Positions 463 to 11,186 of a stretch of 11,190 nucleotides of DNA are shown one piece after another (position 1 is the stretch's first letter; each line of letters opens with the position of its first letter). The translations under genes and the position numbers were made by a program. The notes beneath the pieces are model-generated. The model was not told the DNA's origin. It saw only the letters and a program-made list of their open reading frames with translations, and did no database searches. The DNA lies in NCBI GenBank assembly GCA_040752395.1, contig JBFMHD010000037.1:5404-16593 (forward strand). The letters are read 5' to 3'. This stretch comes from Candidatus Hydrogenedentota bacterium (lineage in GTDB: Bacteria > JBFMHD01).

Positions 463-1863
463 ATGTATATTAATGAATCCCAGATGCAAAAGATTGTTGA
501 GAAAGTTATAGAGCGACTGAAAGATGCAGGTGAAATCATTATTGATGTTAATAGAGGTGATGGAATATTCGAGGATATAGAATCAGCGATTACAGCTGCT
601 AAAAATGCTCAAAAAACTCTGCTTGAATTATCACTTGAGAAAAGAATAGAGATAATCGAAAGTATGCGTAAATTTGCTCGAACACAGGTTCATCGATTCG
701 CAGTAATGGGCGTTGAAGAGACGGGTATGGGTAGAGTAGAAGATAAGATTGCTAAAAATTTGCTTGCTATAAATAAGACACCAGGTGTTGAAGACCTTAT
801 CCCATGGGTCTGTAGCGGCGACCACGGTCTTACCCTTGAAGAAAAAGCACCGTTTGGTGTTATTGGTTCCATTACTCCGTCCACAAATATTACTGAAACT
901 GTTATTGGCAATGCTATCTGTATGATAGCAGCAGGGAACAGCGTGGTGTTTAATCCTCACCCATCTGCTAAAAGAACAGCACAGGCTGCAATGGTGGTAC
1001 TGAATCAGGCTATAATAAAAGCAGCCGGACCAGCTAACCTTATAACCACAGTAAGAGAGCCAACCTTAAAATCAGCTGAGACTATTTTCACGCATCCTGA
1101 AGTTAAACTCGTACTTGTAACTGGCGGACCTGCTGTTGTTGAAGCAGCTATGAAATATCCTAAACGTTGCATCTGTGCAGGACCAGGAAACCCGCCTGTT
1201 GTTGTAGATGAAACAGCTGATATAAAAAAAGCAGCTAAAGATATAATTTTAGGTGCTACGCTGGATAATAATATTCTGTGCATCGCAGAAAAAGAGATAT
1301 TTGTTGTTGAGCCTGTATGTGATGTGCTTAACTCTGAATTAAAACGTGCCGGTGGATATCAATTGTCAGGGTATCAAATGGACCAATTAATGAAACATAT
1401 TGTTGTTAAAGAGGAAGTGGTGAACAGAGAACTTGTTGGCAGGAATGCTAATGTTATAGCTAAATATATAGGGTTAACTATACCTCAAGAAGTGAGACTA
1501 CTTTTTGCCGAGGTCTCAAAGGAGCATCCGCTTATTTATTTAGAACAGCTTATGCCCGTGATACCTGTTGTCAGAATTAAAAACGTAGAAGAAGGTATAG
1601 AACTATCTCTCAAAGCAGAGCACGGATACAAACACACAGCTATTATGCACTCTAAGAATATCGAGCGGTTATCAAGGATGGCACGTATTATGGATGTATC
1701 TATATTTGTTAAGAATGGGCCTTCCTGTGCAGGTCTTGGTTATGGTGGAGAAGGCTACACTACCTTTTCAATCGCAGGTACAACAGGTGAGGGCTTGACT
1801 ACACCAAAAACATTTACCCGACCCAGACGCTGTACACTGGTAGATTATTTTAGAATCGTATAA
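463..1863 (+). CDS. CoA-acylating aldehyde dehydrogenase, PduP/EutE-type BMC core enzyme, with an N-terminal encapsulation-peptide-like amphipathic helix
   Basis: 466 aa. ICAGPGNPP and NNILCIAEKEIFVVE motifs are typical of acylating ALDH. The N-terminus SQMQKIVEKVIERLKD is amphipathic and precedes the catalytic domain. Confidence 0.88.
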   Translation: MYINESQMQKIVEKVIERLKDAGEIIIDVNRGDGIFEDIESAITAAKNAQKTLLELSLEKRIEIIESMRKFARTQVHRFAVMGVEETGMGRVEDKIAKNLLAINKTPGVEDLIPWVCSGDHGLTLEEKAPFGVIGSITPSTNITETVIGNAICMIAAGNSVVFNPHPSAKRTAQAAMVVLNQAIIKAAGPANLITTVREPTLKSAETIFTHPEVKLVLVTGGPAVVEAAMKYPKRCICAGPGNPPVVVDETADIKKAAKDIILGATLDNNILCIAEKEIFVVEPVCDVLNSELKRAGGYQLSGYQMDQLMKHIVVKEEVVNRELVGRNANVIAKYIGLTIPQEVRLLFAEVSKEHPLIYLEQLMPVIPVVRIKNVEEGIELSLKAEHGYKHTAIMHSKNIERLSRMARIMDVSIFVKNGPSCAGLGYGGEGYTTFSIAGTTGEGLTTPKTFTRPRRCTLVDYFRIV

Positions 1864-1872
1864 GATGAAAAA

Positions 1873-1941
1873 GATAGGAGTTAGGAGTTCGTAATAATAG
1901 ATCCGAGCTCCGAACTCCGAACTCCGAAGTTTTTCGCAGGA
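1873..1941 (+). promoter_or_regulatory. Leader element copy B, a terminator-like hairpin immediately upstream of the SD of the pduS-like gene
   Basis: GGAGTTAGGAGTTCG(1877-1891) pairs with CGAACTCCGAACTCC(1911-1925), 15 bp with one mismatch. Then gaag, TTTTT(1930-1934) and GCAGGAG. Confidence 0.45.
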
Positions 1942-3282
1942 GTGATGGAATACTATATGGTAGAGAAAAAAAGAGATTTAATTGATATAATTAAAGAAGC
2001 AGGGGTTGTGGGCGCTGGCGGTGCTGGATTCCCTACACATATTAAATACAGCACAGAGGTTGAATATGTAATAGCAAATGGTGCCGAGTGCGAACCACTT
2101 CTACGTGTCGATCAACAATTAATGGATAAATATGCAAATGAGATAATACAGGCGTTACTTGCTGTAAAAGAAAGAGTAAAAGCAAAAGAAGCTATGGTGG
2201 GATTAAAATCTAAATATAAAGATGCTATTCGCTCCCTTAAAAAAGCTTCAAAAGATAGAGTAAGATTACATCTTCTTGAGAATGTGTATCCTGCCGGCGA
2301 TGAACATATTCTTCTTTATGATATGACAAAAAGAATCGTTCCAGAAGGTGGCATACCATTGCAGGTCGGCGCTGTTGTCTCTAATGTTGCCACACTTCTG
2401 TGGGTATATGAAGCAATGAATGGTAAACCTGTTACTGATAGGTGGCTGACAGTAACAGGTGAGGTTAATAAACCACAGACTATAAAGGTTCCGATTGGTA
2501 CCACAGTCAGAGATGTGCTGGAGTTTTGTGGCAGAGTAAAGATAAAAGATTTTAAAGTTATTGTTGGTGGACCAATAATGGGGGGTCTGGCTGAGAGTAT
2601 AGATCAAGGGATATTAAAGACTACAAGCGCCATTATTGTTTTACCAAAAGACCATTATGCTGTGTCTTACAAATATTTTGATTTAAATCTACATATCAAA
2701 ACGTCTAAAGCAGCGTGTTGTCAGTGTACATTCTGCACCAGTATTTGTCCGCGCAATTTAATAGGTCATTCAATAGAGCCTCATAAAATAATGAGGGGGA
2801 TATCATTTGGTGTTAATACAGCGGTCAAGGATGCTACGTTAGCTTTTTTATGTTGTGAATGCCAGTTGTGTTATTTCGCCTGTCCGATGAATTTAGCACC
2901 AGGAAGAATTAATGCTCTATTAAAACAGGAATTGACAAAAAAAGGCATAAAGAATCCGCATAATTTGAAACATAACAGGGCCCATATAATAAGAGAATAC
3001 AGGCTTCAACCTCTTAAAAGATTGATTGTTAAACTCGGGTTAACAGACTATGATGTTGATGCTCCTATATCTGATGAAACTTTTTTGCCAAAAAGGGTAA
3101 AAATATCATTGAAACAACATTTTGGCAAAAGTGCTGTTTGTGTGGTAAAAGAAGGGGCTAAAATTAAAAGAGGCGATGTTATAGGTGAAGCTGCTGAGGG
3201 TATATCAGCACGGGTTCATAGCTCTATAGATGGAATTGTAAAGAGTACACAGGGTGATGAGGTTATAATAAGTAGTGGATAA
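1942..3282 (+). CDS. PduS/RnfC-family flavoprotein with two [4Fe-4S] ferredoxin motifs
   Basis: AGVVGAGGAGFPTHIKY and NGAECEP motifs (RnfC/Nqo1-like NADH/FMN domain). Two CxxCxxCxxxCP motifs (CCQCTFCTSICP, CCECQLCYFACP). C-terminal barrel-sandwich-like segment. Start is ambiguous: GTG 1942, ATG 1945 or ATG 1957. Confidence 0.85.
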   Translation: MMEYYMVEKKRDLIDIIKEAGVVGAGGAGFPTHIKYSTEVEYVIANGAECEPLLRVDQQLMDKYANEIIQALLAVKERVKAKEAMVGLKSKYKDAIRSLKKASKDRVRLHLLENVYPAGDEHILLYDMTKRIVPEGGIPLQVGAVVSNVATLLWVYEAMNGKPVTDRWLTVTGEVNKPQTIKVPIGTTVRDVLEFCGRVKIKDFKVIVGGPIMGGLAESIDQGILKTTSAIIVLPKDHYAVSYKYFDLNLHIKTSKAACCQCTFCTSICPRNLIGHSIEPHKIMRGISFGVNTAVKDATLAFLCCECQLCYFACPMNLAPGRINALLKQELTKKGIKNPHNLKHNRAHIIREYRLQPLKRLIVKLGLTDYDVDAPISDETFLPKRVKISLKQHFGKSAVCVVKEGAKIKRGDVIGEAAEGISARVHSSIDGIVKSTQGDEVIISSG

Positions 3283-3298
3283 TCCATTGGTTATAGTT

Positions 3299-3326
3299 AG
3301 AAGCAAGAGGCAAGAAGCAAGATAAC
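3299..3326 (+). repeat. AGAAGCAAGAGGCAAGAAGCAAGATAAC tract, an inverted copy of 384-411
   Basis: Reverse complement of 384-411 with one mismatch. Related tracts at 6128-6150 and 10789-10800. Confidence 0.7.
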
Positions 3327-3361
3327 AGAAGAAGTGAGAAGTAAAGACCAAGGAGAGAACA

Positions 3362-3910
3362 ATGGAACAGGCTTTAGGGTTACTCGAGACAACGAGTGTC
3401 GCGTTAGGTGTTCAGGGTTGTGATGCGATGCTGAAATCAGGTAATGTTATATTGTTGGAGTCACGACCCACGTGTCCGGGTAAGCACTTTACATTAATTT
3501 CAGGTGAGGTCGGTGCTGTAAGAACAGCTATCGCAGCTGGTGAATTAGCTGCCTTCCCATCTGTGGTTCAGACAATGATTATCCCGAATGTTCACCCTTG
3601 TGTTATACCTGCGTTTACAGGTTCTAATATAGTAGAAGAGATAGAGGCTTTAGGTGTGATTGAGACCTATTCTTTAGCAGCCTGTGTTGAGATGGCTGAT
3701 GCAGCAGTAAAAGCTGCTGAAATTAAACTTATTGAAGTGCGATTAGGTTCAGGGCTTGCTGGTAAGTCATTTATATATTTAACAGGTACGGTGGGAGCTG
3801 TGAGGTCTGCTGTTTCTGCTTGTTTATCGCTTGAACATCATAAAGGATTGGTTCACTCAAGTATCATTATACCTTCACCGCATCCTGATTTAATCAAAGC
3901 GATTTTATAA
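3362..3910 (+). CDS. Tandem-BMC-domain shell protein (BMC-T), PduT-like, with the conserved Fe-S ligand Cys38
   Basis: Two BMC (PF00936-like) repeats (ALGLLET...GEVGAVRTAI and ALGVIETYSLAA...GTVGAVRSAV). The PTCPGKHF motif aligns with PduT TICPGKF. The Cys38 codon is tgt at 3473-3475. Confidence 0.88.
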   Translation: MEQALGLLETTSVALGVQGCDAMLKSGNVILLESRPTCPGKHFTLISGEVGAVRTAIAAGELAAFPSVVQTMIIPNVHPCVIPAFTGSNIVEEIEALGVIETYSLAACVEMADAAVKAAEIKLIEVRLGSGLAGKSFIYLTGTVGAVRSAVSACLSLEHHKGLVHSSIIIPSPHPDLIKAIL

Positions 3911-3932
3911 GAATGTCAGTCGACATTCTTTT
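3911..3932 (+). terminator. Intrinsic terminator-like hairpin GAATGTC-agtc-GACATTC followed by TTTT
   Basis: 7-bp perfect stem, 4-nt loop, T-run at 3929-3932, immediately after the pduT-like stop codon. Confidence 0.55.
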
Positions 3933-3971
3933 GGATACGGAACGATATCAGCTTTGCAGGATTAAGGAGTT

Positions 3972-4214
3972 ATGGATAAAGAATATATAGCTTCTGTGAT
4001 AACAGAAGTTATAAATGAAGAGATAAAGATAAAAGATAAACTTACATATCCAGCGAAAGAAGTCGTAAGAGTTGATGAGGTTATCGATGAAAGGATTATA
4101 AGAGATTTAATAAAAGGGAAAGCAGATGTTGTGAAAATAAAAAGTAGCGCAAAGATTACACCGCTTGCAATGGATAGAATAAAAGAGTCTAAAATTAAAG
4201 TTGTGAGAACATAA
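3972..4214 (+). CDS. Small (80 aa) BMC-locus protein of unknown function, with SAF/beta-grasp-like resemblance
   Basis: Strong RBS (AAGGAG, 5 nt before the ATG). The segment IIRDLIKGKADVVKI...AKITPLAMDRIKESKIKVV resembles the SAF-domain pattern xDIxKGxxVxKY...IGxAxxDIxxGExV (as in UxaA_N, FlgA, CpaB). This resemblance comes from memory only. Confidence 0.6.
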   Translation: MDKEYIASVITEVINEEIKIKDKLTYPAKEVVRVDEVIDERIIRDLIKGKADVVKIKSSAKITPLAMDRIKESKIKVVRT

Positions 4215-4215
4215 C

Positions 4216-4509
4216 GTGTTTTTTGCAAAAGTGATAGGTAATGTAGTTGCAACAAAAAAAAACGAAAATCTAAAAGGAAGAAGATTACTTCTTGTTCAGC
4301 CTGTAGACGAAAATATGAAACCCAGGGGGGACCCTGTTATTGCACTTGATTGGCTTGGCACAGATGAAGATGAATTAGTTTTTATAGTTCAGGGGAGAGA
4401 AGCTGTATATGAGGAATCTATGAAAGTAATGATACCAGCTGATGCTGGTATATTTGGTATTATTGATTCAGTGGATACAAAAGATAAGAACCTTTATAGA
4501 AAGCATTAG
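4216..4509 (+). CDS. BMC vertex protein (BMC-P), EutN/PduN/CcmL family, copy 1
   Basis: MFFAKVIGNVVATKK... is the classic EutN N-terminus. 97 aa. GTG start directly follows the upstream TAA stop. Confidence 0.85.
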   Translation: MFFAKVIGNVVATKKNENLKGRRLLLVQPVDENMKPRGDPVIALDWLGTDEDELVFIVQGREAVYEESMKVMIPADAGIFGIIDSVDTKDKNLYRKH

Positions 4510-4522
4510 GCTCGGGGGATGT

Positions 4523-4798
4523 ATGATCCTTTGTAAAGTTGTTGGTGTGGTTGTATCAACACAAAAAAATAAAAAGTTCGAGGGTGTTAAAATTTTTGTT
4601 GTACAGCCGATTAATCCCTCAGGCGAACCTATAGGAAATACTTTAATCTCTGCAGAATATGAGAATGATGCAGGCATCGGAGATACTGTATTAGTATTTA
4701 CTAAAGGGAATGCATCAAGATTAGTTGTAAGGGACCTTTCTTCACCAGTAGATTATGCTATCTGTGGTATTGTTGACAGAATAGAGATGAGTCATTAG
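4523..4798 (+). CDS. BMC vertex protein (BMC-P), EutN/PduN family, copy 2
   Basis: MILCKVVGVVVSTQKN... 91 aa. GGGGGA RBS 5 nt upstream. The 4442 start given in the ORF track is an upstream read-through extension. Confidence 0.85.
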   Translation: MILCKVVGVVVSTQKNKKFEGVKIFVVQPINPSGEPIGNTLISAEYENDAGIGDTVLVFTKGNASRLVVRDLSSPVDYAICGIVDRIEMSH

Positions 4799-5753: not shown

Positions 5754-6050
5754 TCACATTCTACGTTTAACAAGATGCGGTACCTCACGTTTTAGTATGC
5801 CGTTTAAAATACCATAAAGAGCTCTCTCGATATTTGGACGGTCAGTATTTGGAGGCAACGTAAGATCAAGTTTAATACGCGCTGAATCAATCAACATATT
5901 GTGAACCTTAATACCCATAATAATTATGTTTCTTTCTAACTGTTTTCTAATCCGATGTTTTAATCCCTCTGAGAGCCGTGAACGGCTCGCACGATCAGGC
6001 ATACTAAATGAAAGCTTAAGCTCAATGTTAACCCTTCGAATTACTTGCAT
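5754..6050 (-). CDS. Small hypothetical protein with a weak RbfA-like (ribosome-binding factor A) pattern
   Basis: 98 aa. Immediately upstream and co-oriented with the CorA gene. The patterns MPDRASRSRLSEGLKHRIRKQLE and ERALYGILNGILKREVPHL loosely match the RbfA N- and C-terminal motifs. An internal ATG at 6002 is an alternative start. Confidence 0.4.
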   Translation of the reverse strand: MQVIRRVNIELKLSFSMPDRASRSRLSEGLKHRIRKQLERNIIIMGIKVHNMLIDSARIKLDLTLPPNTDRPNIERALYGILNGILKREVPHLVKRRM

Positions 6051-6121
6051 AAATAATATCTTAACATATATGAAAATATTGTCTATAATTTATTTGACAT
6101 AATTCCCTCGCTTATAGGTTG

Positions 6122-6305
6122 TAAGAAGTAAGAAGCAAGAGGCAAGAAGTAGATAATATGTTGGCTCCGGGCTTGGGGTTCCAGACTCCAGCCGGCTGTA
6201 GTCCGTAGCCTGAAGCCTGTAGCCCGAAGAGATGTTTTTTTAATTTTTCATAGTAGGAGGTTATCAGTAAACAGAAAACCGAAAACCAAACACCGAACTT
6301 AAGAA
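6122..6305 (+). repeat. Mosaic intergenic repeat cassette, copy 2 (partial)
   Basis: It contains AGAAGCAAGAGGCAAGAAG, the GGCTCCGGGCTTGGGG...CAGCCGGCTGTAGTCCGTAGCC core, a T-run plus AGGAGG, (AAACCGA)n and ACACCGAACTTAAGAA (6290-6305). The last box matches 11012-11027. Confidence 0.65.
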
Positions 6306-6367: not shown

Positions 6368-6811
6368 ATGAAAGTTATAACAGTTAATAAGAAAGCTGGG
6401 TTTAATTATCAAATATTTGAAAGGTTTGAAGCTGGTATAGTTCTTAAAGGTAGTGAGGTAAAATCAATAAGAGAAGGTAATATAAATTTAAAAGATGGTT
6501 ATTGTATAATGAAGGCAGATGAATTATATCTTATAAATGTGCATATATCAAGGTATAAGCCATCAGGAGTATTGAATCATGAACCTGAACGGGCACGAAA
6601 AATGCTCCTTCATAAAAGAGAATTAAAAAGATTGACAGGAAAGATCAATGAGAGAGGGTTAAGTATTATACCATTAAAGGTTTATATAAATCAAAAAGGC
6701 AGAATCAAAGTTGAGATAGGTTTAGCTAAGGGGAAAAGTAAGATTGATAAACGTGAGGATTTAAGAAAAAGAGCTATTGATAGAGAGATTGAGAGAGAGT
6801 TAAAGTATTGA
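6368..6811 (+). CDS. smpB: SsrA-binding protein SmpB
   Basis: 147 aa. KKAGFNYQIFERFEAGIVLKGSEVKSIREGNINLKDGY matches the SmpB signature. A basic C-terminal tail is present. The tmRNA gene follows on the same strand. Confidence 0.95.
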   Translation: MKVITVNKKAGFNYQIFERFEAGIVLKGSEVKSIREGNINLKDGYCIMKADELYLINVHISRYKPSGVLNHEPERARKMLLHKRELKRLTGKINERGLSIIPLKVYINQKGRIKVEIGLAKGKSKIDKREDLRKRAIDREIERELKY

Positions 6812-6850
6812 CGAATCTAAAGTATTATAGTAATATATAAAATTATAGGA

Positions 6851-6969
6851 GACAGAAGACAGAAGTTAAAAAGATACAAAGATTGAAAGATTCAAATGCA
6901 TTTTAACTTTTAATAGGAGGGTAAATAAATTTGCAATTTGCAATTTACAATGGAGCAAAGCGACAAGAA
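6851..6969 (+). repeat. Phase-coherent chain of heptamer tandem tracts upstream of the tmRNA
   Basis: (GACAGAA)x2, AAGATTG/AAAGATT, ATTTTAA/CTTTTAA, (AATTTGC)x3 and a GGAGCAAAGCGACA box (6952-6965). Confidence 0.6.
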
Positions 6970-6971
6970 AG

Positions 6972-7370
<399 letters not shown>

Positions 7371-7472
7371 GCTGACCTTATGGGAGGAAGAGTTCACAAG
7401 GATGTGAATAGAAGAAAATCACCGTGCCTGGAGCGAAGCGACAGCCGGAGTCGAACGAGAGTGAGCTAAAAG

Positions 7473-8177
7473 ATGAAGAATAAACCATCAGTTATAGGTG
7501 TTGTTCTGATTTTTTGCCTGCTACTTTTTAGTAACACTGATTGTATAAAAGCTCAGACTGCAAAAATATTGAGAGTTTGCATAGACCCGGGGCATGGTGG
7601 CGAAGATAGCGGCGTACCTGGTATGGCCGAACTCTTGGAAAAAGATGTTACTTTACAGATAGCAAAAAGAGTAAAGGAACAATTATCAGGTTATCCGAAT
7701 GTTGATATCGTGCTTACAAGAACGCTTGATATAACGTTAAACGATAAAGAAAGAATAAAAAGAATCTTTAACTCTCAACCCTCTCTGGTTATTTCATTAC
7801 ATACAGATGCTTCTTTAGATACAACTCTATCAGGAATAACAATATATAGTCTTGAAAACATAGTATCACCAATTTTAGGAAATGAACAAAAACAAGAAAT
7901 AATTAATAAAACATATAATGCTGCTGAAATAATTTACCAGATTTTTATTAAAAATATAATTTCTTTTGGCGTGAGCAAGCCGATAAAAGCGGATTTAGCG
8001 ACATATAGGAAGATAGGTCTCCCTGTAATTATGATTAATGCTGGATTTATAACTAATGCTGCTGATGAACTTATTATTTCAAAACCCGAGGGTTTAGAAG
8101 AGATAGCAAATAGTATCTCACAGGCAATTATTGGTTTAGAATCCCTCTTTATGGAATCTGTGCAATCAGAAAATTGA
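7473..8177 (+). CDS. N-acetylmuramoyl-L-alanine amidase (Amidase_3 family), secreted
   Basis: 234 aa. N-terminal signal peptide. The CIDPGHGGEDSG and SLHTDAS motifs are the Amidase_3 zinc-ligand signatures. Confidence 0.85.
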   Translation: MKNKPSVIGVVLIFCLLLFSNTDCIKAQTAKILRVCIDPGHGGEDSGVPGMAELLEKDVTLQIAKRVKEQLSGYPNVDIVLTRTLDITLNDKERIKRIFNSQPSLVISLHTDASLDTTLSGITIYSLENIVSPILGNEQKQEIINKTYNAAEIIYQIFIKNIISFGVSKPIKADLATYRKIGLPVIMINAGFITNAADELIISKPEGLEEIANSISQAIIGLESLFMESVQSEN

Positions 8178-8185
8178 TTTTTATT

Positions 8186-8420
8186 CAAGGGTTGAGGCAC
8201 TGCCAGAGAAGAATCTTATCTGCGGAATTTTTGCAATTCGTACAGAATTTTTGCTTTCGAGTCTGGCGTCTGAAGCATACGAATGGAGAATGGGTTGAGG
8301 CACTGCCTCATCCGTCTCTTTGCCAACAAAATTTCGCTTTTTGCATAGAGAATTCGCTTTTGCTGTATGGCATAGCAGATACCGAATGGTAGAATGGGTT
8401 GAGGCACTGCCTCATAATAC
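8186..8420. repeat. Three diverged ~104-bp tandem units, each carrying the palindrome TGAGGCA-c-TGCCTCA
   Basis: Palindromes at 8193-8207 (imperfect, right arm TGCCAGA), 8296-8310 and 8400-8414 (both perfect). Spacing is 103 and 104 bp. The units also share CGAATGG(T)AGAATGGG and GAATTTTTGC-like subrepeats. The period is not divisible by 3. Confidence 0.75.
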
Positions 8421-8469
8421 AATGAAAGCTGTACCTGAAAGTAAACGAGAAAAAAAAAGAGGTAAATCA

Positions 8470-9033
8470 ATGAGAAGAGTAGTATATATAATTATATTTT
8501 TAGCCGGGGTGATAGGTTTACTTTTAACAATAAAAACAAATTTCAATAAAATAAAAAGGGTTAATGAAATAAAAGGAGTTGCAGCATCTCAAACTCCGCT
8601 ACAAACCGAGAATGTGAGTATATATTTTGCTATTAAACAGCGAATGGAGTTACGCCAGGAAATAAGAATAGTTGAAAAAAGTAACACCATAGCTGGTAAA
8701 ATAAAAAGAATTATAGATGAAATGAAAAAGGGACCCCTGGATCCACAACTGAACAGAACCATACCTGCTGATATAGAAATTATGGATATATTCTTATCTT
8801 GTGACAGGGTATTTATTAATTTAGGGACCCACAATTTAGAAGAAATATTTATAAGCTTATCACAGGAGAGGATATTTATTAATTCTATTGTATTTTCTAT
8901 TCTGAAGAATATAGGGTATACCTATGATTCTGTAAGAATACTTATCAATGGGAAGGAGACAGAGGGAGTTCATATATATTTAGGAAGAGACTATAAAATA
9001 AGCGATTTTGAATCAGAAGAAGAAAGTCTATGA
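8470..9033 (+). CDS. GerMN-domain membrane-anchored protein
   Basis: 187 aa. N-terminal TM segment (VVYIIIFLAGVIGLLLTI). The body follows the GerMN pattern (VSIYFAIKQ...IRIVEK...IIDEMKKGP...IPADIEI...ILINGKE). AGAGGT RBS. The 8320 start in the ORF track is an extension through the repeat region. Confidence 0.65.
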   Translation: MRRVVYIIIFLAGVIGLLLTIKTNFNKIKRVNEIKGVAASQTPLQTENVSIYFAIKQRMELRQEIRIVEKSNTIAGKIKRIIDEMKKGPLDPQLNRTIPADIEIMDIFLSCDRVFINLGTHNLEEIFISLSQERIFINSIVFSILKNIGYTYDSVRILINGKETEGVHIYLGRDYKISDFESEEESL

Positions 9034-9602
9034 ATACTAAACCGGGGCAGATTATTTTAAGCAGTCTGTTTTTTATCTTTATTGGATATATAATTTACTG
9101 GGCGTTTTATTCAAAAATTGAAGAACCCAAAATCTTTAATAAAGCCATAGAAAAAAATGTTAAAAATTTAATTACAGGTGGTAAATATATTCGTGCATCA
9201 GAAGGTAAAATTCACTGGGAGATTACTGCAGATGAAACACAAGAAAAGGGCTCAGGCGAGATTAATTTAAAAAGAGTTTATTTAAAATTTTATGATATCG
9301 AGGCCGATACACCGATAATAGTAAATGCACTCGAGGCTATTTATAGCCCCAATAATAAAATCATTAAATTAAAAGATAATGTTGTTATAAAATACGGAGA
9401 TTTATTAATATTAACAGATGAACTTAATTATGAAGAAGAGAACGGATTTTTATTTAGTAAAAGTAATGTGGAGATAAGAGCCAATGAGAGCGTGATATAT
9501 GCCAGAGGATTGAAGGCTTATACAAGAGAAAAAAAATTGAAACTTTTTAATGTAAAAGGCAATTTAAGACCAGAAGATATAGAGGGGTTGAATAATTTAT
9601 GA
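9030..9602 (+). CDS. lptC: LPS export protein LptC
   Basis: 190 aa. N-terminal TM anchor. The C-terminal LKAYTREKKLKLFNVKGNLRPED matches the LptC end motif. ATGA overlap with the upstream gene. lptA and lptB follow. Confidence 0.78.
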   Translation: MNTKPGQIILSSLFFIFIGYIIYWAFYSKIEEPKIFNKAIEKNVKNLITGGKYIRASEGKIHWEITADETQEKGSGEINLKRVYLKFYDIEADTPIIVNALEAIYSPNNKIIKLKDNVVIKYGDLLILTDELNYEEENGFLFSKSNVEIRANESVIYARGLKAYTREKKLKLFNVKGNLRPEDIEGLNNL

Positions 9603-10081
9603 GAAAATTACTGCTGATATCAGTTGTATTTTTATTGTTAGGTAATACCGGGATAGCTTTAGAGGTAGAGAAGATACAGATCAATCATTCCGATGAGATG
9701 ATTTACGACGGGATTAAACATACGCTGGAATATACCGGCAGCGTGGATGTTACAAGCGACCAGATGGAATTAAAAGGTGAGAGAGTCATACTCTATTTTA
9801 ATGAGAAAGAAGATGAGATAATAAAAGCAGAGGCGTTCGGTAATGTATATATGAAAAAGGATGAATTCACTGCTGAAGCAGGTAAAGTAATTTATGAAAC
9901 CCAAAACGGGAAAATTACATTAGAAGAAAAACCAGTTGTTTATGGCGAGGGGAAAAAACTTAAGGCAGATTTTATAATCTACTTTGTTAAAGAGAAACGG
10001 ATTGATGCAAAGGGTAATGTATCGGGATTCTTTATACCACAGAAAAAAAAGAAGAAAGAAGATGAGTCAACTAAAAGCTGA
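9599..10081 (+). CDS. lptA: LPS transport periplasmic protein LptA (OstA-like)
   Basis: 160 aa. Signal peptide. OstA_N-like beta-jellyroll pattern. Lys-rich C-terminal tail. Position in the lptC-A-B operon. Confidence 0.75.
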   Translation: MRKLLLISVVFLLLGNTGIALEVEKIQINHSDEMIYDGIKHTLEYTGSVDVTSDQMELKGERVILYFNEKEDEIIKAEAFGNVYMKKDEFTAEAGKVIYETQNGKITLEEKPVVYGEGKKLKADFIIYFVKEKRIDAKGNVSGFFIPQKKKKKEDESTKS

Positions 10082-10784
10082 AAAAATATCAAAGAGGTTT
10101 GGGAATATAATCGCTGTTAATAATATAAGTCTTGAATTTAGTTGCAGCGAAGTTATTGGTCTGCTTGGACCAAACGGCGCAGGTAAAACAACAACGTTTT
10201 ATATTCTTATAGGATTGATAAAATCTGATACCGGCGATGTTTATATTGACGAACAGAAAATTACAGATTTTCCTATCCATAAAAGAGCACAATTAGGCAT
10301 CGCGTATCTTCCACAGGAACCATCAATATTCCGCAACCTTACTGTTAGAAATAATTTATTAGCGATACTTGAGTATCTCCCTCTTATAGAAGAGGAACGT
10401 GAAAAAAGAATTAATGAAATTTTACTCGATTTTAATCTCGGAAAGATTGTAGATTCTATGGGTTATAGTTTGAGCGGCGGTGAGAGAAGACGAGTTGAAA
10501 TAGCACGAACTTTGCTTCGTAAACCGAGATTCCTTTTGCTCGATGAACCTTTCTCCGGTATCGATCCCATTAAAGTTGATGAACTAAAAAAAGAGATAAT
10601 AAGACTTAAAGAAAAAAATATCGGCATAGTTATAACAGACCATAATGTTAGAGAATTACTTGAGATAACTGATAGAGCTTACATAATTAACAATGGTGAG
10701 GTATTGATAGAGGGAAATTCAAAAGATATAATCGAGAGTGAAGAGGCACGAAATATTTATCTGGGTGAGAATTTTAAATTGTGA
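10062..10784 (+). CDS. lptB: LPS export ABC transporter ATP-binding protein LptB
   Basis: 240 aa from the ATG at 10062. Walker A GPNGAGKTT. ABC signature LSGGERRRVEIAR. Walker B LLLDEPFSGID. Overlaps the lptA end by 20 nt. The 9984 start in the ORF track is an extension. Confidence 0.9.
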   Translation: MSQLKAEKISKRFGNIIAVNNISLEFSCSEVIGLLGPNGAGKTTTFYILIGLIKSDTGDVYIDEQKITDFPIHKRAQLGIAYLPQEPSIFRNLTVRNNLLAILEYLPLIEEEREKRINEILLDFNLGKIVDSMGYSLSGGERRRVEIARTLLRKPRFLLLDEPFSGIDPIKVDELKKEIIRLKEKNIGIVITDHNVRELLEITDRAYIINNGEVLIEGNSKDIIESEEARNIYLGENFKL

Positions 10785-10786
10785 CT

Positions 10787-11027
10787 TAGAAGCAAGAGGC
10801 ACAAAGGCACAGAGGCACAAAGTATGAAAAGAGTCGTGAGTCAAAACAGGACTCGAGACTCAAGACTCAAGACTTTTTAGCAGGCTCCGGGCTTCGGGCT
10901 CCAGCCGGCTGTAGTCCGTAGCCCGTAGCCTGTACCCCGAATTATTAGAGTTACAGCGTTTTTCAGAGGAGCGAAGCGACAATTAGGTTATCGGTGAACT
11001 GACCACCTAACACCGAACTTAAGAAAC
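10787..11027 (+). repeat. Mosaic intergenic repeat cassette, copy 3
   Basis: AGAAGCAAGAGGCAC, (GAGGCAC/AAGGCAC)x3, ATGAAAAGAGTC...(GACTCAA)n...GGCTCCGGGCTTCGGGCTCCAGCCGGCTGTAGTCCGTAGCC, ATTATTAGAGTTACAGCGTTTTTCAGAGGAG, GGAGCGAAGCGACA and ACACCGAACTTAAGAA. Collinear with copy 1 but with fewer tandem units. Confidence 0.7.
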
Positions 11028-11151
11028 TCTATCGATAAAATAGACATAAAATTGACGGTAATATATTAAAATATTGACAAATATAATTTTTTTTAAAAGA
11101 TTTTTAATGAAAAAATACTTTAAAATAAAGAAATTATATTTTAAAAAAAGA

Positions 11152-11186
11152 CTTGACAAAATGGTATAAAGCTTGCTATATATTTT
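11152..11186 (+). promoter_or_regulatory. Putative sigma70 promoter (TTGACA, ~18 nt spacer, TATATA) reading out of the window
   Basis: TTGACA at 11152-11157. TATATA about 18 nt downstream. Sits in an AT-rich tract. Confidence 0.35.

Follow-up and report, generated by a model that had tools for sequence, protein, structure and literature searches.

Repressors that act through several operators at tandem promoters are well known in Escherichia coli. In deo, DeoR operators lie at P1 and P2 and a third lies upstream; lac (O1/O3) and gal (OE/OI) are organized on comparable lines. Palindromic repeats of intergenic regions form another group, which includes REP/BIME of E. coli, the Correia elements of Neisseria and RUP/BOX of Streptococcus pneumoniae; REP and MITE families are defined by their many dispersed genomic copies. 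Short tandemly repeated heptamers (STRR) are known in cyanobacteria.

Here we analyzed an 11.19-kb stretch of DNA (the window) from a 16.6-kb contig of a metagenome-assembled genome (MAG) of Candidatus Hydrogenedentota, in which the spacer between an amidase gene and the GerMN-lptCAB genes carries a repeated palindrome. Like deo, lac and gal, the spacer has dyad sites, one of them overlapping a putative promoter start, with further copies at distances of ~100 and ~200 bp on the 5′ side, close to whole numbers of helical turns, and its apparent duplicated promoter-plus-operator design resembles deo P1/P2. Unlike these systems, its sites would stem from duplication of a whole promoter region, with inherited phasing; the upstream sites are partly decayed, and the dyad arms are 7 bp long around a single central base. 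With REP/BIME and MITE elements it shares a G+C-rich imperfect palindrome of 20–35 nt, the clustering of copies within an operon spacer, a unit length of ~100 bp and what looks like a lineage-specific insertion between genes that are contiguous in a relative. However, all its copies in the window are in direct orientation at one locus, the interiors are far more diverged than the conserved block, and there is no MITE-type signature of terminal inverted repeat and target duplication beyond that of any repeated palindrome.

Genes around the spacer

The gene upstream of the spacer (7473–8177, + strand; MEW5692369.1) encodes an N-acetylmuramoyl-L-alanine amidase (Amidase_3, PF01520, E=6.5e-33), and the one downstream (8470–9033, + strand; MEW5692370.1, 230 aa as deposited) a GerMN-domain (Germane) protein (PF10646, E=6.6e-8). 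It is followed on the + strand by lptC (9030–9602), lptA (9599–10081) and lptB (10062–10784). Since the start of each lpt gene overlaps the preceding stop, these genes form, together with GerMN, one translationally coupled operon. A terminator scan of both strands of 8178–8469 revealed no terminator-like site, and none was found after the amidase gene, so read-through into GerMN is likely. Among the window ORFs, no regulator gene was assigned by the family search.

Three in-frame starts can be considered for GerMN: ATG 8470, ATG 8422 and the deposited TTG 8341. At ATG 8470, a good Shine–Dalgarno (SD) motif (GAGG, 8459–8462) stands 7 nt upstream, and the protein opens immediately with its membrane anchor. 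ATG 8422 has no SD, and the TTG 8341 model would translate repeat unit 2 and the third palindrome. Thus, the deposited start is probably too far upstream, and ATG 8470 is the best supported one. The last palindrome had been placed ~55–70 bp before GerMN, and this distance (56–70 bp) applies to the SD-supported ATG 8470 but not to the starts at 8422 or 8341.

On the other side, the amidase gene is preceded by smpB and tmRNA and, further out, by a microcompartment cluster. The smpB gene lies directly 5′ of a one-piece tmRNA (177 bits, 6972–7333; region 6368–7333) with the tag peptide ANTELALAA; downstream in the window we saw no direct repetition, of the island type, of the 3′ end of this RNA. 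The microcompartment cluster (463–4798) comprises genes for an acylating aldehyde dehydrogenase-like protein, a PduS/RnfC-like flavoprotein with Fe-S domains and a shell protein with tandem BMC domains, two EutN/CcmL pentamer genes, and an unassigned 305-bp stretch (3911–4215) with an 80-aa ORF (3972–4214). A 98-aa ORF of no family (5754–6050, – strand) is located downstream of a corA-like gene, and a perfect 16-bp G+C-rich palindrome, GAGCCGTGAACGGCTC, lies inside it (5973–5988).

Two further short repeats were revealed in the window. The element GGAGC(G/A)AAGCGACA occurs three times on the + strand (0 expected), namely 7 nt 5′ of tmRNA (6952–6965), 30 nt before the amidase ATG (7430–7443) and in the spacer after lptB (10968–10981), and may represent a leader, processing or promoter-proximal element. 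A 29-nt repeat (6277–6305 and 10997–11025, 86% identical) ends in ACACCGAACTTAAGAA; we take its GAACTT to resemble the –35 of ECF/sigma-E-type promoters.

The tandem repeat and its palindrome

The repeat in the spacer occupies 8188–8415 and amounts to ~2.2 copies of a ~104-bp unit. A previous reading of the sequence alone (the sequence-only reading) had described a triplicated, diverged unit of this length. It was right as regards the diverged tandem repeat, whose interiors are in register, but there are ~2.2 units and not three full ones.

The 15-bp palindrome TGAGGCAcTGCCTCA (that is, TGAGGCACTGCCTCA), with arms of 7 bp around a single central base, has exact matches at 8296–8310 (copy 2) and 8400–8414 (copy 3, 56 bp 5′ of ATG 8470). 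The remaining copy (copy 1, 8193–8207) reads TGAGGCACTGCCAGA and has two mismatches, both in the outer right arm. Start-to-start distances are 103 and 104 bp. At ≤3 mismatches we found six strand-matches (three sites) against 0.17 expected in the 11.19-kb window, which contains no other such site, and none of 200 dinucleotide shuffles equalled this count. The recurrence of the palindrome at ~104 bp before GerMN-lptCAB was thus confirmed, as were its two perfect copies and one degenerate copy. Perfect palindromes of any kind are not in excess in the window (4 vs. 4.1 expected); the non-random part is the recurrence of one G+C-rich 15-mer and not palindromes as such.

The two unit interiors (8209–8278 and 8312–8381) are each exactly 70 nt long. 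Their ungapped alignment gives 32 identities of 70 (46%), best at offset 0, as compared with 18.7 ± 3.7 in shuffles; one shuffle of 5000 reached this value, so the interiors are homologous in register. The score of a gapped global alignment was reached by six of 2000 shuffles. The unit ends are much more alike, with 29 of 31 positions identical vs. 45 of 80 for the interior (Fisher p=1e-4), and this argues for constraint in more than one copy. On this evidence the spacer arose by an apparently old duplication in tandem, and all that survives intact is a 30-nt block, CGAATGG(T)AGAATGGGTTGAGGCACTGCC(TCAT). The junction block CGAATGG(T)AGAATGGGTTGAGGCACTGCC is either constrained or homogenised.

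Each interior contains two T-tract sub-repeats 20–21 bp apart. In unit 1 (+ strand) they are two copies of GAATTTTTGC (8225–8234 and 8245–8254, 20 bp apart), and in unit 2 (+ strand) they are AAAATTTCGCTTTTTGC (8328–8344) and GAATTCGCTTTTGC (8350–8363), of the form AATT(T)CGCTTTT(T)GC. Sub-repeats of one unit are 74% identical, whereas those of different units are 52–61% identical. It follows that local homogenisation acts here, and it could alone explain the conserved block.

The copies differ in what precedes the palindrome. The box CGAATGG(T)AGAATGG occurs twice, without the T at 8280–8293 and with it at 8383–8397; on the + strand it reads CGAATGGAGAATGG before copy 2, where GAATGGA-GAATGGG is itself a 7-nt tandem, and CGAATGGTAGAATGGG (8383–8398) before copy 3. 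Copy 1 follows the amidase stop codon (8175–8177) and shares only GGG with the box, which disagrees with the claim of a box in each unit. In the block of copy 1 (8188–8208, + strand) GGGTTGAGGCACTGCC is intact (16 of 16), no –10 box lies upstream and the right arm is degenerate; divergence sets in abruptly after the 16 nt, in the middle of the palindrome.

A promoter-like block at the third palindrome

In a promoter scan, the only + strand promoter-like match inside the spacer was ATGGCA-17-TAGAAT with TG, which agrees with the consensus at 9 of 12 positions (4 of 6 in the –35) and ends 4 nt before palindrome copy 3. Its –35-like hexamer lies in the interior of unit 2 (8367–8372), and the block of copy 3 supplies the TG (8387–8388), TAGAAT (8390–8395) and a GGG discriminator (8396–8398), with the palindrome beginning 1 nt later. 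The exact pattern TGNTANAATGGG has matches in the box of copy 3 only. In copy 2 the corresponding hexamer is GAGAAT (8286–8291), which has no –12 T; its TG is out of register, and the –35-like CTGGCG in the interior of unit 1 (8263–8268) is weaker. It should be mentioned that promoter-like consensus matches in the A+T-rich window occur overall at chance frequency (8 vs. 6.3 expected). Sigma-70-type hexamers are also present elsewhere in it, for example TTGACA-17-TATATA near 11150–11180. Sigma-54 (–24/–12) and sigma-E (GAAC) readings of the block were rejected by eye, as neither the spacing nor the bases fit.

If transcription starts ~7 nt after the –10, the dyad of copy 3 would cover about –2 to +13, which is a classical position for a repressor. 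The T tracts would then lie at about –41 to –44 and –60 to –64. These are UP-element-like positions, and together with the two –10-like boxes ~104 bp apart in the same direction they are reminiscent of the rrn P1-P2 tandem promoters and of promoter-region duplications, although the upstream copy in our spacer has lost the –12 T. The centre of the dyad also bears on its mode of recognition. In both perfect copies, the bases on either side of the single central one, A and T, are complementary to each other. A hairpin needs a loop of at least 3 nt, and this pair cannot form in it. Thus, the symmetric pair fits recognition of a dyad on DNA better than an RNA stem, and mildly favours the former.

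We directly observe the repeat, a non-random pattern of conservation, a promoter-like match to the consensus and no terminator. From these we tentatively take the spacer for a promoter/operator module in iterated form that would feed GerMN-lptCAB; this is the reading we prefer, at somewhat less than even odds. An entire promoter region would have been duplicated in tandem to give the 2.2 copies. Each unit would have at its transcription start a 15-bp G+C-rich dyad, preceded by a –10 extended with TG, a weak –35 and phased sub-repeats with T tracts. Copy 3 would be the working internal promoter for GerMN-lptC-lptA-lptB, and a putative dimeric DNA-binding protein that occupies the dyad at its presumed start would stand in the way of RNA polymerase. 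Copy 2 (about –99) would serve as a second, weakened promoter/operator, and copy 1 (about –202, half degenerate) as an accessory site of low affinity; cooperative binding or looping could be contributed by both.

Several observations speak against the promoter/operator module. Copy 2 lacks the –12 T. Copy 1 lacks the box and an intact dyad, yet its left 16 nt are perfect, which more readily suggests the edge of a conversion or duplication than selection for symmetry. Besides, the closest homologous locus has no spacer, and the intergenic DNA of this genome is unusually repeat-prone. Our confidence in the module therefore stays below even, given the chance-level number of promoter matches, the homogenisation within units and the repeat-prone genome.

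The sequence-only reading had proposed an operator array for a dimeric regulator. The diverged tandem repeat, the better conservation of the palindrome block and the operator-like location of palindrome 3 just 3′ of a promoter-like site speak for it, but neither the third box nor the phasing was borne out. The spacings do correspond to 9.8 (103/10.5) and 9.9 (104/10.5) helical turns; however, both come from one duplication unit, and by our estimate ~40% of arbitrary unit lengths fall within 0.2 turn of an integer, so that the ~10-turn phasing loses its value as independent evidence. A more far-reaching possibility, which we consider quite improbable, is that a dedicated repressor of this deep-branching uncultured lineage occupies a phased set of three dyads as operators, two of which go with iterated promoters of the extended –10 type, and controls GerMN and lptCAB by looping; it would act as a specific transcriptional switch on the operon.

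Competing readings and biological meaning

A neutral or selfish lineage-specific repeat is the first alternative. It supposes that DNA was inserted and tandemly amplified, that short-patch gene conversion, slippage or membership in a REP/MITE-like family kept the block alike, and that the resemblance to a –10 is incidental. We regard this as somewhat unlikely, yet much in the genome agrees with it. Almost every other intergenic region consists of tandem 7–8-mers and dispersed elements, with copies 81–93% identical. The homogenisation of sub-repeats within units and the abrupt end of conservation after 16 nt of copy 1, in mid-palindrome, fit as well.

The repeats themselves deserve description. 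Tandem arrays of 7–8-mers occur in nearly all other intergenic regions (43–362, 1872–1930, 3297–3334, 6121–6297, 6850–6951 and 10797–10939), and the heptamer types include ACTTTTA, TAGGAGT, AGCTCCG, GACTCAA and CTGTAGC. Many arrays are inverted pairs whose predicted hairpins are long, bulged at intervals of 7 nt and, on the + strand, make use of G-U pairs (10880–10945, –38.1 kcal/mol, z=–6.2; 1866–1938, z=–4.8), and several of these are followed by T runs in a terminator-like manner. Among the dispersed elements, 253–358 and 10832–10937 are 93% identical, and a third copy is located at 6170–6233. Arrays of single heptamers have been reported for Beggiatoaceae (TAACTGA), Cyanobacteria and Bacteroidetes (PMC4679880), and inverted-pair hairpin arrays are not described there for the TAACTGA repeats. 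Our literature search yielded no account of hairpins formed by paired arrays, nor any of repeats of this type from the phylum. The likeness of our spacer to the STRR and to the TAACTGA repeats (PMC4679880) lies in the richness of the same genome in intergenic heptamer arrays and in the 7-nt tandem of the box before copy 2, whereas the 104-bp unit and its palindrome are not heptamer arrays.

One of these arrays accounts for the half-site GAGGCAC, which had been noticed to recur after lptB. It is indeed present at 10796 and 10812, but within a tandem array of AGGCACAA (×3.2), a separate array class and not half-sites of the palindrome. We rejected a link to the palindrome, as the array represents a variant form of a heptamer element, AGAAGCA/AGAGGCA, that is also found at 3297 and 6129, where the homologous elements read AGAGGCAAGAAG.

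Comparison with relatives also bears on the neutral repeat. At the protein level, identity to the best homologue is 40% for the amidase and 58% for LptB, and for the GerMN protein there was no detectable homologue besides itself. At the closest amidase locus the next gene, whose product has a membrane anchor and a basic stretch at its N terminus, overlaps the stop codon of the amidase gene and leaves no spacer. This suggests that the 292-bp spacer is lineage-specific, and speaks for the neutral repeat. The more distant loci lack synteny, so that all the loci compared have either no spacer or no synteny. The sequence-only reading had named a spacer not conserved in relatives as grounds for rejecting its proposal; formally this is what we found, but relatives at 40–58% identity are too distant for a fair test.

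The exact 18-mer GGTTGAGGCACTGCCTCA has 18 matches in genome contigs, 32 in metagenome contigs and one in viral contigs, in collections that do not include the source genome. These matches are single-copy, have unrelated flanks, come from unrelated taxa and occur at about random expectation; none carries the AGAATGG box. Their contexts include termite-gut contigs, one eukaryote-like contig and a conserved coding stretch in Methanosarcinales. The last is found in eight ANME/Methanosarcinales contigs, which share one conserved context with the flanks ...ggtgcatcttcatt... and ...gtttgcgcttccgc... and are unrelated to the window. In the viral contigs, neither a 21-mer with the box nor a 25-mer from the dispersed heptamer element had a match. 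BLASTN of the spacer against plasmids and phages gave no match, and a literature search on the palindrome sequence found no papers.

Against the neutral repeat stands first the absence of the block elsewhere in the ~2.4 kb of intergenic DNA of the window, where other repeat families recur two to three times. The 18-mer with the same flanks was likewise unmatched in the collections; as these exclude the source genome, they are uninformative on its copy number there. The interiors, near saturation (46%), are nevertheless each exactly 70 nt long in a slippage-prone genome, which suggests a constraint on spacing. Finally, conversion confined to ~30 nt at both unit ends would be an ad hoc assumption.

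An element acting at the RNA level is the second alternative, and we consider it unlikely. Amidase and GerMN-lptCAB would be co-transcribed, and the palindromes would form intercistronic hairpins serving as a REP-like barrier to 3′-exonucleases, as a processing site or, at the 5′ end of the GerMN mRNA, as a stem-loop that protects it. The lack of a terminator after the amidase gene and the overlap and coupling of the gene pair in the nearest relative make the read-through that it needs likely. Copy 2 with its flanks (8286–8320) could form a longer hairpin (–17.4 kcal/mol, z=–4.5), and copies 2 and 3 pair over ~18 nt in the minimum-free-energy fold. However, the hairpin of copy 3 has just 6 bp (–8.2 kcal/mol, z=–1.7), and copy 1 cannot form one, although its left half is intact. 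On the + strand, predicted folds of the spacer and of its units taken singly do not surpass those of shuffles (z=–0.75, +0.39 and –1.26), and folding of the spacer and the units on both strands against shuffles showed nothing significant beyond the local hairpin (z from –0.75 to –1.4 for the units). There is no covariation and no use of G-U pairs, unlike in the heptamer hairpins of the same genome. The conserved block also runs 17 nt 5′ of the stem into the –10-like box, and a hairpin role leaves this part unexplained. With Rfam covariance models only tmRNA (6972–7333) scored in the whole window; for the spacer alone the best E-values were 2–6, with scores far below gathering thresholds. Two other readings were discarded. 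An intrinsic terminator is contradicted by the lack of a T run after any stem (the tails are TCCGTCTC and TAATACAA), and a coding spacer by ORFs without a Pfam family and a unit length that is not a multiple of three.

Tandem small-RNA genes (NsiR1-like, with a promoter per unit) or a minimal CRISPR-like array (33-nt repeat, 70-nt spacers) are largely refuted and highly improbable: the regular ~33-nt block with its palindromic core, the two equal 70-nt intervals, the degenerate terminal copy and the –10 box heading two units would suit them, but the two would-be CRISPR spacers show in-register homology (1 of 5000 shuffles), which true CRISPR spacers do not, all ORFs of the 11-kb window belong to other families or lack a cas-like match, and for small RNAs no terminator closes any unit on either strand, conservation is lowest in the interiors, the expected place of seed and terminator, and Rfam gives no match.

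Returning to the promoter/operator module, the spacer is a real, non-random and apparently lineage-specific feature whose conservation pattern suggests a function, and it is most simply accounted for as a duplicated promoter/operator region, which is plausible but ordinary. On present evidence the feature is confined to one MAG, and we do not generalise beyond it. If it is a lineage-specific repeat only, it would be one more sign of unusually active local duplication in the intergenic DNA of this organism. Constitutive expression or tuning by sigma-E is the usual view of the lpt genes. Should the dyad be a real operator, it would represent a rare case of specific repressor control of genes for Lpt (lipopolysaccharide transport), and of their coupling to an amidase/GerMN cell-wall pair, in a phylum without a cultured model. 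It would also provide a motif by which an envelope regulon could be defined in this lineage.
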